Shown piece by piece: positions 18,001-24,000 of a DNA stretch of 64,000 nt. The DNA comes from Vulcanimicrobiota bacterium. Its GTDB lineage: Bacteria; Vulcanimicrobiota; Vulcanimicrobiia; Vulcanimicrobiales; Vulcanimicrobiaceae. The stretch spans positions 544,001 through 608,000 of the forward strand of contig CAWCIZ010000002.1 in NCBI GenBank assembly GCA_963795855.1, in the 5' to 3' direction. Each line of letters begins with the position of its first letter. Positions within the stretch are counted from its first letter, which is position 1. The position numbers were made by a program.

Positions 18001-21000
18001 GCCGGCACGAACTGATTCTGCGCGTGGCGCGGGACCACGATCGCTTCTGCTTCCGCTATATGCTGAACGGTGTCGCGCAGGATAGCGCGCCCATTTTACG
18101 CGCGCATCGGGGCGAGCGCTTCGCGCTCCGCATCGTCAACGAGTTGCGCGGGCCCGCAAGCGGCGCCACGCTGCCCGCGAGCGCTCTCGCTCCGTGCAGC
18201 CCGCGCTCTATGCCGGCGATGATGCCCAAGCAGTACGCCGGCTATCTGAACCACACCATTCGCTCGCGCGCGATGCCCATGCCGGATACGGACGTAAATC
18301 TGCACCTCCACGGTTTCGAGGGGCCGGCGGCGCAAGAGAACGTATTTCTGTCGACGCTCAGCACGCCGATGCACGCGTGCGAGTACGACATTACGATCCC
18401 GGCTACGCAGCCGCCCGGAACGTATTTTTATCATCCCCACGCGCACGGCATGGCGGGAGACGAAGTAGGCGGCGGACTTGCCGGAATGTGGATTGTCGAT
18501 CCCGACTCGCCGCAAATTTCCTCTGAGGACGAGCATCCGATAATCTTGCAATATCGCGTGCCGTATGTGAACGACAACAATTTTCTTCCCGCCACCGGCG
18601 CGCTCGGTAGTGCAGCCCTAGCGCACGAAGCGACGTTGCGTCCAGCCGCACGCGTCTCGTACAATCCATTCGATCCGCCGCCCTGGCCATCGTCATTTCC
18701 GGTGCGTTCCGGCACCGAATCACTCGTGGGCTTTTGCGGAAACCGGAGCGGCACGCTGCTTGCCGTAAACGGCGTCGACGCGCCGGCGCGGCTGACTGTA
18801 CCAGCGGGTCGACCGCAACTCCTCCGACTGCTCAACGCCACATCGGACAGCGTCGAATTTCTCCACGTCAAGGATGCCGCGGGACGCATGCAGACGCTGC
18901 ACGTCGTCGGCCGCGACGGGGTGCCGGTCGGTGGCGACGACGCGCATCCGCTTTCCCGCTATATCGCGATGCGCGAAATGGAACTGGTTCCGACGGGTCG
19001 CGTGGACGTATTGCTGACCCTCAAAGCGGGGGATGTCCTCACGCTCTACGGCGATCATCACTGCATCGCGCCGCTCGACGAATTCCACGTCAGTCACGAC
19101 GTCCTCAAAATCATCGCCGGTCCCGCCGTCGCGAACCCGGCGACGATCGCATCCGCGCCGTTGCAACCGGCTGAATCACCCGCGCTTGCGCTGCTGCAGT
19201 TCGCGCGTGAGAATCCGAGCGCGGTTCGCCGGCGAGCCATCACCTATACCGAATACGCGATTCCGAACGCGAGCGGCCACGGCGGTCATGCGGAATATTA
19301 CATCACCGAAACGAGCGTTCGAAATTTCCACGAGCATCCGTACTGGCCGCAATACCGCAAAGGCGCCGTGGTTCCGCAGCCCGACATCGTGGTGAAGCAA
19401 GGAACGATTGAGGAATGGTATCTTTTCAACGCGACGCTGGAGGAGCACTCGTTCCACATCCATCAGATGGCGTTCGTCGCGGAAGACGCCGCGCCCGGGC
19501 CGGCGACGGTCGATACCGTACTCGTTCCAGTGGGCCGCTTACTGCCGAATAAGGCCAATCCCGATTATCCGTTGATAAAGCCGTCCGTCACACACGTGCT
19601 GCTGGATTTTCGCCACGTCCCTCGCGGAACGTTCCTCTTCCACTGTCACATGCTGTTCCACGAAGATCGCGGAATGATGGCCGTGATTCGCGTCGAGTAA
19701 CCGCTTAGGCTACCGCGCCGCGATCCGCGCTCTCGGACGATGCAAGTTGCAGCGCGAAGCCTTCCTGAATGAGTTTGCGCACGACTTTGAGCGCATGCTC
19801 GTCCTTTGCGATAAGCGACGCCAGCTCCACGGAAGGCTTGGCTTCGAGTTCCCGAACGATGGACGCGGCATTCTTGCCGAACGTGAGGTTTTTTCCGGAA
19901 AACGCAATCTTGGTGCTTTGTTCGCCTTCGGTCATCTCGTAGAGCATGTTGGCACGCATCGCCACGACTGAATGTTCGTTCAGTTGCGGTAAATCGGCGA
20001 TTTGACGCATCTGCCCGTCTAAGCCGTTCGGACGCTCTTTGAAGAACGAGGACACGGCAGCGTCGAACGCGCCGTGGAGTCGTTCGGACGAGAACACGCT
20101 TTGCAAAACGGCGGCAAACTCCGGGTCCGCCAAGTCGTTGAAGTCGACGGTTCCGCGAAGACGCGGCTCCGCTTCCGCCGCCTTGGCGACTGCGTCGGCG
20201 AGAACGTGATACCACTTGTGCGGATAAAGGCCCAGAGTCACGTGCAGCGAGAGTTCTTCGTTCGCCTTGCCTTCGTGCAAGAATCCGCGCGGAATGTAAA
20301 GCAGGTCGCCCGGCTGCATCTCGATTTCGAGCTGCACGTCGCCGACCGCGTGGAGTTTTTTGTCGAAGAACCGGTCCTCGAGCGGCAGCTGCGAGGGCGC
20401 ATCGTAGACGCGCCAATGCTTGGAACCTTCAATCTGAATGATGATCGTGTCGTGCGTGTCATAGTGCATCGCGAAGCCCTGGTTGCCCGGGGGCGTCATG
20501 TAGACGTTGGCATTTACGCGATGCCGGAAGAACGACTCCATTTCGCGGCAGAGCGTCGCGATGGGCGGGGACATCTTTCCGACGGCATCGAGCACTAACG
20601 AGCAGCCGCCGCTGAACAGCGAACTGACGCGGTCGGGATCGATCAGATCGTATGACGGGGCTTTGCGGTTCTTGGGATCGGATTTGTTCACTTGCGCGTA
20701 CGTATCGATGCGCGCGGAAACACCGTCTTTGACGAGGCCGAGATCCTTGGCACGCACGATGCTGCCGTACAGGATTCGCTCGTACTCCTGCAGCGTGAAA
20801 TAGCGATCGTACCGGTTCGGCTCGTTCCGCGAAATGTGCAGCGGCGCGCGTTCGTAATAGCGCTGCCGGAAATCGTCCAGCGAATGCGGCGCGAGCAGCC
20901 ACGTCAGAACGGCGCGGTCGCGTGCGTTAGAACTCCACATAGTGCTCATGGTAATGCAGACGAGCCTTCGGGCAAAGCCGCTCGGGCATCATGCGATGCG

Positions 21001-24000
21001 GGTAGAACGTCTCACGGAATCGATGGGACGTGTTGCTCAGAAAAATTGGGAGGGGCGCCTCGACGGCGCCCCGACTCGGTTCCCCTCCCGCAGAGATTCG
21101 CGACTAGTAGTCGCCGTCCGGGAACACGGACTTCGGTCCGCCGAAGTCGCAGTGTGCGGAGTCATCTCCGAAGCCGGAGTTCGGGCTGCACGGGCTCGAT
21201 GCGAAACCCGTCGCTTCGCTCATGAGCGTGCTCATGTGATACGAAGTGACGATGTCAGGCTTGATATAGTCCATTACAATCTCCTGGCGTAAGCATGCCG
21301 AGAAGTAGCCTTCACGGTCATATCGCTAGGCTACCGCGCGGGGCGGTCCCTTGAAAGTGCTCCGTGTATCAGCGCCGGGTGATGATTTACTTCCATGAGA
21401 ATTTGCTGAGAATCGCCGCAATGCGCAATAGGTACCCCGAAAGTCCCACACAGGCGTAGTACTGCAGGACGATATTTTCACGCCGCGACCGTACTGAAGA
21501 GCGGGCGGAACAGATCGAGGGTGTGAAGCCTGTGCCAATCGCGCCGTAACTCGGCCGACGTGGGCGCGCCTTCACCGCGGAGTGCCGGGCCTAAGAGCAG
21601 TGAAGGCCGCGTAATCGATGTTCCGAGATTGTGACGTGCAGCGAGCTCGTCGACCAAACCCAGCAATTTCGTCAGCGGCTCTTCCTGCGGGAACCGGCGC
21701 CGAATCAGGTCCTCAATCACCGTGCGGTCGGGTGCGCGAAGAAGCATAGCCAGCAGCAGACGCATTTCCGGCTGCTTCATGCTCTTCATCAGGCGGGTTA
21801 TCAGACGCTCGCGGTGCATTTCGCGGAACGCGCCGGCCGCCGTGCCGGCCAAGCGCGCATGCCGCCGCCGCAGCAAGGCCTGCAATTCGAGCGTTATCGC
21901 GGAGTGCAGTTCTTCGCTTGCCGCGACGCGGCAAGCCTGGTACGAATGCCACCAGTCGCCGCTTGCGACCGCCTTACGCGCGAGATCGGCGAAGAGGTAC
22001 GGGTGCGAGCGATACAGCGTGCGCATCAGTTGCAGGCGCCGCTGCGCCACGATGTCGCGCTCGACGGGGTCCCACGCCAGCCCGGGAGCGACGTAATTGA
22101 ACTGCGGCAGATGCGCGGGCTCGCTGTTGGTCCGAATTACGATGCTGACCGAAGGCGAATTCAAATGCAGCAACGCATGGATGAACGCGCCGCCGGCGTG
22201 GATGGACCGAAAGTCTCCGCGTCCGAGCACTTCCGCCGAGTCGAAGCGCAGGTCGCCGATGCAGAGTTCGCGGCAGAGCCGCTCCTCCGGCGCGAACGCG
22301 TACGTGCTGTGGAAGCTCGACCCGTGCAGTACCCCGAATACGCCTGAAAACGAGTGGTGGTGAATCGTCGTCGGCGAGTCCACCCAAAACAGGATCTCGA
22401 TGTAGAACCCGCGGCCGACATATGCGCGGATTGGGGGCTGGCCGAACTTACTCAATTTCTGGTCCGGAAGATCGAGAGCAGTCATGAACCATTCGACGAC
22501 GTCTTCGAACCGCACGCGATCGAAAACGCCGGAGTCGCCGAGCGCGTTCGTGGCGATCTCCGGAAAGGCCGCCGGATCGCAGTCTGCACCATCCCAGCGC
22601 GACTGAATCTGCTCGCCGAGCTTTTGAAAGAGCTGCATTGCCTCCATCCGCCAAGCGTACTGCTAAGGCGGCGCCGGCCGACGTTCCATCTGCTCTACGC
22701 GTCTATGGGTCGGCCAACCCATTTCAGGCTTTTTGGAAAGGGCAAGCGGGGCGGGCGTAAAGAAACGCGTGCCATGGAACCGGACTGGCTTGCATGGCAC
22801 CGCGAGTATCGCGATCCCTCGACGAAACTTTCGGAGCGCCTGCAAATCGTGCAGCAGCGCATTCGCGAGACGGTCGACGCCGCGCAATCGCCGCAAATTC
22901 GCATCATCAGCATTTGTGCGGGACAGGGGCACGACGTCCTCGGCGCGCTCGCCGAGCATCCTCGCGCCGATGCGGTTCGAGCACGCCTGGTCGAGATCGA
23001 TTCGCGCAGCGTCGAGATGGGCCGCGTGGCGGCGGAGACGCTGCAACTGCCGGGCGTGGAATTCATCTGCGGCGATGCTTCGGTTACCGATGCGTACGCG
23101 GGCGCCGTTCCGGCGCAACTGGTCGTGTGCTGCGGCGTGTTCGGGAACATCTCGCTGGACGACGTGCGCCGGGCCATCCTGCATTTTCCGCAGCTTTGCG
23201 CGCAAGACGGTATCGTGATTTGGACGCGGCATCGTCGCGATCCCGACGTCACGCCGGAGATTCGGCAGCTCTTCACCGGCAACGGATTCAGCGAAGTCTC
23301 GTACGACGAAACGGAACGGTTCGGCGTCGGCGTCGAACGGCTGACCGATTCGCCGCAGCCGTTCAAAGCGGGGCAGCGTCTCTTTCAGTTCGGCAGCGGG
23401 CTTTGGGCCAATCGCGCGTAAGCGAGATGTGCGAATCCGTATTCCTCACGTGAAATGCGGGCGGCGTGCAGGCTAGCGCGATCGGACGAACGGGTGAAGA
23501 TGCTTGCGCCGGTCGGATCTTTCGAATAGCGCGAAAAACACCGTTCGACTTCTTCTCGGTCGACGTCTTCGGGGGCGATGCCGAGTTTCGGCAATAACTC
23601 GAAGACCGCGGCCGGATTCAGCGTGTCATAGTCGATGCAGAGCGTGCCGGGCGTGCTCATGGCGGCGGTACATTGCCACTCGAACACATCCGACCAGAAC
23701 CGGCTCGGCGAGGGATTCCAGCGCTCGGGTTTGCTCATGAGCCGGCGCATCAGCGGCACGCAGGCCGCGCGCGCCTCTTCGGAAACCTCGGCGAGTTTCG
23801 AGCCGATCACCGCTTGCGGATCGCGATAGAGAAATACGAATTGCGCGCTCGGGAATATGCCGCGCAAGGCCGGCAGAAACATCGACGCGAGATTCATGAA
23901 CTTGACGAACAGATACCGCTTCGGTGGCCCGTTCGCCGCGCAGGCGTTAATCGCGCCTCGCAACAGTTCCGCGTCGATGGGCGGCGCTAGCGCCTGCTCC

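Follow-up and report, generated by a model that had tools for sequence, protein, structure and literature searches.

A peptide gene beside a JmjC oxygenase as a likely satellite of a dispersed LPP-like system in Eremiobacterota

Introduction

In a 64,000-nt stretch of DNA (the window) from an Eremiobacterota genome (G000), an open reading frame (ORF) for 56 amino acids lies next to the gene of a JmjC oxygenase. Is it the precursor of a modified peptide, and if so, of which kind? The initial annotation read it as one of a new family of two-Cys precursors paired with JmjC oxygenases. The pairing was supported, but the Cys pair does not set these peptides apart as an independent class: the family has a lasso/LPP-type YxxP leader, and two of its peptides are encoded within an operon that holds the gene set of linear polyphosphorylated peptides (LPP; Popov et al. 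2026, PMC13381572). We favor, with a probability of roughly 0.65, the reading of a dispersed LPP-like RiPP system in Eremiobacterota, for which the window carries a satellite cassette of tailoring genes.

Results

The peptide gene and the adjacent oxygenase

The window ORF looks like the precursor of a chemically modified peptide, distantly akin to the LPP phosphorylated peptides. The ORF and its neighbor have the following features:

21104..21274, minus strand: precursor peptide, 56 aa, with a putative leader (residues 1-23) and a putative 33-aa core
21206-21274, minus strand: putative leader, residues 1-23, with a YxxP RRE motif and a C-terminal A-x-G
21107-21205, minus strand: putative core, 33 aa, beginning F-A-S, with two Cys and five Asp
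21281..21285, minus strand: Shine-Dalgarno-like AGGAG, 7-11 nt ahead of the ATG
19705..20949, minus strand: NO66/RIOX1-like JmjC Fe(II)/2-oxoglutarate (2OG) oxygenase, 414 aa, intact (PF08007, E 1.5e-29; start perhaps at 20940)

As first described, the ORF sits immediately ahead of the NO66-like JmjC gene, and that gene is intact. Purine-rich sites like the AGGAG also precede most true matches to the family DNA pattern elsewhere. This pattern had a single match in the window but none in 100 shuffles, and none of 22 loci with a distant JmjC had a family peptide, in line with the earlier claim for such loci; these two results argue that the ORF is not a chance one. The presumed cut after A-x-G was placed by the Ser3 register of LPP (PMC13381572) and by the small residues at -3 and -1, found in 51 of 51 peptides.

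The window JmjC has the HxD...H motif followed by C-terminal helical and winged-helix domains, as in NO66/MINA/YcfD, and H162, D164, H225 and K177 were invariant across 49 alignment rows. Pairing of precursor and dedicated JmjC was supported genome by genome: strong peptide matches occurred in 8 of the 401 genomes of the phylum, the same 8 that have a close JmjC. The 18 JmjC proteins from peptide loci formed one clade (support 100/99) in a tree that contains only four rows known to be without a peptide. Two of the three peptide-adjacent JmjC genes of G000 carry frameshifts, and the reported splits on C1 and at C2:108.9k were confirmed as one and two frameshifts, respectively. To the three genes described before we add a fourth, intact one at C1:247093-248337.

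Composition of the peptide family

A genome search recovered the six family ORFs previously reported for G000, and the peptides scanned had no Pfam or NCBIfam match, also as reported. Our profile search yielded 35 proteins at E<=1e-3, four of them the G000 query peptides, and the spacing from Tyr to Ser was 23 in all 35. A two-Cys tail had been given as a family trait. This held for 34 of the 35 proteins, with two Cys after F-x-S, but less well for the G000 peptides (two core Cys in 5/6; C2:121593 has none) and for the JmjC-adjacent peptides (exactly two in 15/18, none in 3/18).

All 18 JmjC-adjacent cores had Phe1, Ser3 and at least two Asp, while core-operon peptides of the same genomes had two Asp in 2 of 12 cases. 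JmjC adjacency was best tracked by Asp-richness (18/18), not by the Cys pair (15/18). The 18 peptides include near-duplicates and kin, so the Asp and Phe1 trends cannot be separated from clade, and the profile behind the Phe1 trend is itself biased towards F-x-S.

A core operon elsewhere in the genome

Two further precursors lie in a core operon at C2:119932-124497, within a capsule locus. This operon comprises genes for an S26 peptidase, an HprK-like kinase and an RRE, the two precursors, an ABC-2 exporter (a permease and a separate ATPase) and NTP_transf_5. The peptidase (PF00717 5e-9, over cut-off; TIGR02228 E 2.4e-8, below cut-off) adjoins the discrete RRE (together within C2:119932-121449), and its Ser/His and acidic residues were invariant in 9 of 9 sequences. 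The kinase match (TIGR04352, E 3.3e-9) is partial and below the NCBIfam curated cut-off; the RRE (PF05402, E 1e-8) is over cut-off and the nucleotidyltransferase matched PF14907 at E 1e-47. The RRE retains the Asn and Asp through which LppB recognises YxxP.

RRE, S26 and NTP_transf_5 genes were found in 7 of the 8 genomes with peptide and JmjC. In the eighth, G179 (93% complete), none of the three was detected; the contig ends in capsule genes just past the JmjC, so absence of the core operon is not established there. G000 has three other places with a precursor ahead of a JmjC of the dedicated clade.

Other genes of the window cassette

Next to the peptide and JmjC genes lie:

21478..22647, minus strand: 389-aa protein with a thiol-dioxygenase-fold cupin and a helical C-terminal part; invariant His 96, 98 and 157
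22774..23421, plus strand: class I SAM methyltransferase-like gene, with a 58% ortholog at the same place in metagenome locus L169
23385..24314, minus strand: sulfotransferase-like protein 1 (PF13469, E 4.5e-6), with a 42% homolog inside the peptide-JmjC run of G229
24311..25288, minus strand: sulfotransferase-like protein 2, a paralog of protein 1, with a 58% ortholog upstream of the L169 peptide

As a putative satellite tailoring cassette, the window comprises the JmjC, the thiol-dioxygenase-fold protein, the methyltransferase and the two sulfotransferase-like genes. The 389-aa protein had no Pfam or NCBIfam match, and its ESM Atlas match (0.97) was to unnamed clusters. Foldseek bore out the thiol-dioxygenase fold proposed earlier, with best matches to cysteine dioxygenase (CDO), ADO and plant cysteine oxidases (PCO; E 2e-6 to 3e-5, TM to target 0.4-0.66), and the three His were invariant in 19 rows. 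This protein is probably an accessory tailoring enzyme, with a weaker link to the peptides: of its 8 copies, just 3 belong to a peptide-JmjC run and 4 lie away from peptide loci, and 4 of the 8 genomes with peptide and JmjC do not have the gene. Its described position beside the peptides applies in the window but not on C1, where it lies downstream of the JmjC. Close sulfotransferases were found in only 2 of 401 genomes, plus metagenome L169.

Discussion

Relation to LPP

LPP have been reported only from Bacillota, in a study that leaves open what their finished structure is, what the NTP transferase does and what biological role they play (PMC13381572). The system described here shares with them a discrete RRE adjoined by a signal-peptidase-I-like leader peptidase, an HprK-like kinase with an NTP transferase, an exporter, a capsule setting without lasso cyclase or B2 peptidase, a YxxP leader, Ser at core position 3, and a variable G/N/D/P-rich core often with two Cys. 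Two core Cys also occur in 7 of the 14 LPP precursors in part 1 of Supplementary Data 1 (PMC13381572). Of the LPP motif YxxPxVLxHQxIxFETxxS, no more than YxxPx[ILV] and the last Ser recur here. Spacing from Tyr to Ser is 18 in LPP compared to 23 here, SYxVxxLYxxASG stands in place of HQxIxFET, and an ABC-2 pair takes the place of the MsbA-like pump. Precursors here are dispersed over the genome, and a dedicated JmjC clade, a cupin and sulfotransferase-like genes accompany them; the main text of PMC13381572 mentions neither JmjC nor dioxygenase. The phylum differs as well, and 'Eremiobacter' does not occur in supplements 2-6 of that paper. Because YxxP and Ser3 are common to both but the leader here has five extra residues and an A-x-G end, we regard the family as an LPP-like variant, not a member.

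Alternative explanations

The satellites could instead form an independent two-Cys class, made by JmjC and thiol dioxygenase alone, with the LPP-like operon serving only its own two peptides. The satellite loci of G000 have no RRE, kinase or peptidase and none was found in G179, most JmjC-adjacent cores have exactly two Cys, and satellite cores are more acidic than core-operon cores. However, YxxP, the A-x-G at the leader end and Ser3 stand in the same register in satellite and core-operon precursors. RRE, peptide and JmjC are joined in one run in G402, followed there by two kinase-like genes, and in metagenome L159, and the capsule locus with the core operon has a satellite right beside it in G000, G229 and G369. 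The cupin is also missing from half of the eight genomes. We consider such a class improbable. Still less probable is that the JmjC hydroxylates ribosomal proteins, as YcfD/NO66 do, and merely rides along with the peptide genes. The window model did match NO66 over its full length (Z 30.5, rmsd 4.8, 380 aligned), and several homologs are named 'L16 Arg81 hydroxylase' by their source; these names are automatic labels, E. coli YcfD matched only weakly (E 7e-10), the gene always occurs with peptides in its 8 of 401 genomes, and as many as four paralogs follow one another with peptide genes between them (G229, L164).

It is very improbable that the ORFs are translated into leader or metal-binding peptides that stay unmodified and control the oxygenase genes. 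Their position 80-230 nt upstream of the JmjC, tails rich in Cys, Asp and His that could bind metal, and several orphan copies would fit such a role, but the conserved N-terminal part with variable tail, the RRE motif and the peptide-processing operon form a RiPP pattern, and terminators, at chance level in the window scan, showed no excess around the window peptide. Least probable of all, by a narrow step, is that the peptides are lasso precursors. The leader YxxPx[ILV] and the kinase and nucleotidyltransferase, which are paeninodin-type tailoring enzymes, would suit this, and TfuB1 was the closest RRE match (2.5e-7, compared to 0.028 for LppB, 9x8z). Against it, the PF13471 B2 peptidase was not found in G000, G229, G037 or G038 (one of five genomes searched was positive, off the peptide loci), and no cyclase gene was seen at peptide loci. 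Strong PF00733 matches lay elsewhere, in ORFs of ~640 aa, with none at all in G037 and G038, and Thr is not conserved at -2.

Proposed mechanism and comparison with known oxygenases

Under the preferred LPP-like reading, and by analogy with LPP, the RRE would bind YxxP of the leader, the kinase would (poly)phosphorylate core Ser3, the peptidase would cut after A-x-G and the transporter would export the core. Gene context suggests that the JmjC would hydroxylate the core of the adjacent precursor, after which the sulfotransferase- and methyltransferase-like proteins would cap the hydroxyls where present. Asp or Asn is our leading guess for the JmjC target, at somewhat under even odds; Pro, His or another residue is a clearly weaker candidate, and the invariant Phe1 slightly weaker again. 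The Cys pair would probably close a disulfide loop. Exported and strongly acidic, the resulting peptide would be linked to the capsule. A more ambitious version has one LPP-like operon serving a genome-wide precursor library, with dedicated NO66-type hydroxylases for every precursor. Where cassettes are richest, the cupin would oxidise internal Cys to sulfinate or sulfonate, and sulfotransferases would act on the newly made hydroxyls. The resulting polyanionic peptides, at once polyphosphorylated, hydroxylated and sulfated, would be bound to the capsule or work together with it. We think this version unlikely in full, and our literature search returned no internal-Cys dioxygenation of a RiPP precursor by a thiol-dioxygenase fold.

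JmjC hydroxylases of RiPPs are known: CzlI (curacozole, PMC11575548) and BipG (biphenomycin, PMC12707348) are likewise JmjC Fe/2OG enzymes of RiPP clusters that put one oxygen onto a precursor. The czlI gene lies directly upstream of its own precursor gene, and CzlI resembles YxbC, which was also matched here. As described, these enzymes belong to other RiPP classes and act on Phe (to Tyr) or Orn. The clade studied here has the full NO66-type three-domain build. NO66/RIOX1, MINA53 and YcfD, the closest solved structures, share the JmjC, helical and winged-helix domains, the HxD...H triad and the 2OG Lys. They modify His and Arg, which are present in only 10 and 4 of the 18 JmjC-adjacent cores, and unlike them the JmjC described here is patchy, multi-copy and tied to small peptide genes. 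The cupin shares its fold and a three-His site in the N-terminal half with the thiol dioxygenases, but has an extra helical half and belongs to an unnamed family widespread outside the peptide system. Peptide-acting ADO and PCO need an N-terminal Cys, and the predicted cores do not start with Cys.

Iyer et al. 2010 (PMC2938197), in the portion considered here, noted bacterial MINA/NO66 proteins in peptide-synthesis clusters and predicted that peptide substrates encoded alongside are hydroxylated and then sulfated or methylated. The operons in that portion differ in having classical 2OG enzymes and collagen-like or tail-collar substrates, and no RRE, kinase or precursor of the present family is described there.

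The system would carry the LPP-type architecture, under a changed leader, beyond Bacillota into a further phylum. It provides named candidate tailoring enzymes that the Bacillota LPP clusters are without, and would also offer first candidate substrates for the bacterial NO66-like clade and the unnamed three-His cupin family. Since each candidate enzyme adjoins its probable substrate, a single in vitro reaction is enough to test each of them.

Additional observations

The strand and helix order of the JmjC winged-helix domain is the same as that of an RRE. The idea that this domain is a built-in RRE was left unsupported (hhalign probability 0.3%; the domain is also present in distant JmjCs), and a fold search with the whole JmjC model gave no RRE or lasso fold among its rows, which the catalytic domain filled. 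A basic loop was considered as a mark of peptide-linked JmjCs, and net charge failed to separate them. Prediction of a JmjC-precursor complex scored 0.01 and speaks neither for nor against binding. A word-indexed homolog search with the window peptide returned only itself and the peptide profile had no match in the PDB; an ESM Atlas match of 0.85 is a lead only. The promoter scan of the window gave four promoter-like sites compared to 1.1 expected, one of them at 24568, upstream of a sulfotransferase-like gene.

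Genes of the peptide–JmjC cassette

The pairing of a short precursor-like peptide with a JmjC oxygenase is a real, coherent and testable system.

Cassette genes in the window
19705–20949, minus strand: 414-aa JmjC gene, intact
21104–21274, minus strand: 56-aa ORF, family peptide, AGGAG ahead of the ATG
21478–22647, minus strand: unnamed 389-aa gene (the cupin)
22774–23421, plus strand (opposite to the rest of the cassette): methyltransferase-like gene
23385–24314, minus strand: sulfotransferase-like gene
24311–25288, minus strand: sulfotransferase-like gene

The predicted JmjC model (pLDDT 94) matched NO66 best (380 residues, Z 30.5), followed by MINA53, YxbC and YcfD, and the metal triad and 2OG Lys were invariant. 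As the initial annotation had it, the source genome, G000 (3.06 Mb, completeness 86%), contains six family ORFs, three lie directly 5′ of a JmjC gene, and two of these three JmjC genes are frameshifted: the C1 copy once, the C2:108.9k copy twice. Many neighbouring genes are split in like manner, so an indel-prone assembly fits the broken copies. A fourth JmjC gene (C1:247093-248337) is intact. Two further genes of the window were not seen again at the remaining peptide loci inspected: a TonB-dependent-receptor-like gene broken across several frames (12999–15400, +), and a multicopper oxidase (18024–19700, +) that is convergent to the JmjC gene.

Searching 1.84 billion proteins with a profile built from the six peptides returned 35 at E ≤ 1e-3, including four G000 query peptides. 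All 35 had a Tyr-to-Ser distance of 23, and 34 carried two Cys after F-x-S; the description of the tail as nearly always having exactly two Cys held for these 34 and for five of the six G000 peptides, and failed for the sixth. Taking the invariant Ser as core position 3, small residues occupied –3 and –1 of the leader end in 51/51 peptides (one row dropped), a count partly circular as evidence because the peptide profile favours such ends. Small residues at these positions are the type I signal peptidase rule. A degenerate DNA pattern fitting 28/36 family proteins found 18 loci in 185,579 genomes. Six of these loci were true, none of them outside the phylum; they stem from five already counted genomes, three titled Candidatus Eremiobacteraeota. 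In metagenomes, 8 of 30 loci were true. A family peptide (P0014), a close JmjC (P0052) and a cupin (P0098), each with a longest contig of 7083 bases, hint at one more three-gene locus.

Co-occurrence of the peptide and the JmjC

A 39-row peptide profile run against 401 genomes of the phylum matched 33 at E ≤ 0.02, eight of them strongly (best E ≤ 4.2e-12; next genome 1.4e-4). JmjC matches at E ≤ 1e-20 occurred in 64 of the 401, and close ones in eight (best E ≤ 2e-110, identity 45–55% outside G000; next genome 1e-53). The two sets of eight were identical (G000, G037, G038, G179, G229, G266, G369 and G402), although kin among these genomes, which come from seven genera in two families, are not independent, and the profile was built partly from peptides of some of them. 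The unpublished G266 counts once per genome tally and contributes three to five rows to the core-composition comparison below. The claimed absence of family peptides from distant-JmjC loci was borne out (0/22 within 1.5 kb). The 18 JmjCs of peptide loci, including divergent ones at 33–36%, formed one clade (100/99) in a tree compared with 15 rows of unknown context and four without peptide, a motif filter having removed 19/22 distant loci. A separate NO66-like group (27–36% identity; L065–L086), in 56 other genomes and 17/18 of one genus, had varied housekeeping contexts and no family peptide.

RRE, S26 and NTP_transf_5 genes were present in 7/8 peptide–JmjC genomes; they were not found in G179, whose contig stops in capsule genes past the JmjC. 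Single runs read RRE-peptide-JmjC-kinase-kinase in G402 and RRE-peptide-JmjC at locus L159. In G229, peptide-JmjC-peptide-JmjC-sulfotransferase-JmjC-JmjC adjoins a capsule locus that contains the core operon. Locus L169 mirrors the window, with a sulfotransferase (58%), an opposite methyltransferase (58%), the peptide and the JmjC (70%), the cupin being absent. A repeat protein resembling a beta-propeller by eye recurs in similar form at L087:18407-19576 and L169:10459-11655, in each case convergent to the last JmjC. Of 11 weak-match genomes examined among 25, seven lacked a JmjC there but had a related short ORF flanked by kinase genes or by a fuller set of core genes; two ended at a contig edge, one was a chance match and one was unjudged.

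Core operon and relation to LPPs

The remaining G000 peptides comprise a solitary one (C3:683652) and two at C2:121453-121691 within a capsule/exopolysaccharide locus, preceded by an ABC-2 exporter and NTP_transf_5 gene and followed by a PqqD-type RRE, HprK-like kinase and S24/S26 peptidase. Popov et al. 2026 (PMC13381572) defines linear polyphosphorylated peptides (LPPs) by this gene set and setting, with core Ser3 polyphosphorylated, RRE-dependent cleavage by an SpI-like peptidase and the precursor motif YxxPxVLxHQxIxFETxxS; it describes LPPs as restricted to Bacillota and tabulates SpI–RRE pairs from other phyla, precursors not determined. Its main text lacks "JmjC" and "dioxygenase", and its supplementary files 2–6 gave 0 hits for "Eremiobacter", "JmjC" and "PF08007". 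Two core Cys occur in 7/14 LPP precursors in part 1 of 11 of its Supplementary Data 1.

The family RREs have an invariant Asn and near-invariant Asp at the spacing of LppB N33 and D70, and their profile matched TfuB1 and, weakly, LppB. Peptidase Ser23, His59, Asp74 and Glu81 were kept in 9/9. The peptide loci contained no B2 peptidase and no cyclase; a PF13471 (lasso B2-type peptidase) match in G369 (L207, C30:13391-13648) lies on a different contig. The system would work like LPP, but its peptides fail the LPP precursor motif and its exporter type differs, and we therefore class it as an LPP variant, not a member.

Operons of a simpler LPP-like type, lacking JmjC, occurred at L099 (G382), L100 (G272), L101 (G087), L103 (G113), L104 (G021), L106 (G008) and L025 (G055). 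Their leader is related, their cores are short and rich in Gly/His, their HprK-like kinases mostly come in tandem, and S26 and NTP_transf_5 are often fused into a protein of some 500 aa. Across the phylum, this basic system seems to have a wider distribution than the one with JmjC. HprK-like genes without an adjoining peptide, or a lone PqqD-like gene, lie at G000 C1:37330-39146, C2:125770-126384 and C3:252545-252826 and at L136:7864-8136; the lone PqqD-like gene, in G000 and G369, sits between genes that by eye look like rpsO and transketolase.

JmjC hydroxylases acting on RiPP precursors are described for CzlI (PMC11575548) and BipG (PMC12707348), and Iyer et al. 2010 (PMC2938197) predicted hydroxylation then sulfation for bacterial operons. 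There are precedents for the core logic and also for the JmjC tailoring, which makes the system less new than first claimed. The literature searched, with few subscription papers covered, contained no description of the precursor family or of an LPP-like system in Eremiobacterota, and no thiol-dioxygenase-fold enzyme on a RiPP precursor; within that scope, the novelty lies in the combination, the phylum, the scattering of the cassettes and the candidate cupin.

Candidate target residues

Eighteen peptides had a JmjC within 650 nt downstream; the rows compared here include near-duplicates. All 18 cores kept Phe1 and Ser3 and had two or more Asp. Two Cys occurred in 15 and none in three; His was present in 10 and Arg in four. 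Two Asp occurred in 2/12 core-operon peptides of the same genomes and in 1/12 peptides from genomes without a close JmjC, where Phe1 was found in 0/12. The Cys pair is therefore probably not a requirement of the JmjC. FIH beta-hydroxylates Asn/Asp. The common candidates for the JmjC target would be Asp, beta-hydroxylated as by FIH, or Phe1, as with CzlI. Runs of up to four divergent JmjC paralogs suggest several modified sites.

Cupin and other putative tailoring genes

The thiol-dioxygenase fold assigned to the cupin stood (model pLDDT 92, three invariant His); only 3/8 copies lay in a peptide–JmjC run, with one in the wider capsule cluster and four apart. The cupin occurred in 5/401 genomes, four of them among the eight peptide–JmjC genomes, and its family is common in other phyla. 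In P0105, a protein labelled as coming from Pseudomonadota, a cupin of this family is fused to a C-terminal domain resembling, by eye, a classical 2OG oxygenase.

Close sulfotransferases (43% or more) were limited to G000 and G229 among the 401 genomes, and both encode APS kinase. A CmcI-like O-methyltransferase lies near the C1 cassette of G000 (C1:242787-243620) and adjoins a family peptide at L182:3-713; an FkbM methyltransferase lies near the G229 cassette (L087:6987-7766). Divergent from the window sulfotransferase genes is a PMT-type membrane glycosyltransferase (PF13231; 25311–26921, +), possibly a glycosylation step. Similar genes (L132:2844-4400, L129:6201-7802 and L168:10234-11760) adjoin the cupin in G229 (blast match) and, by eye only, the cupin in G402 and a peptide in L168.
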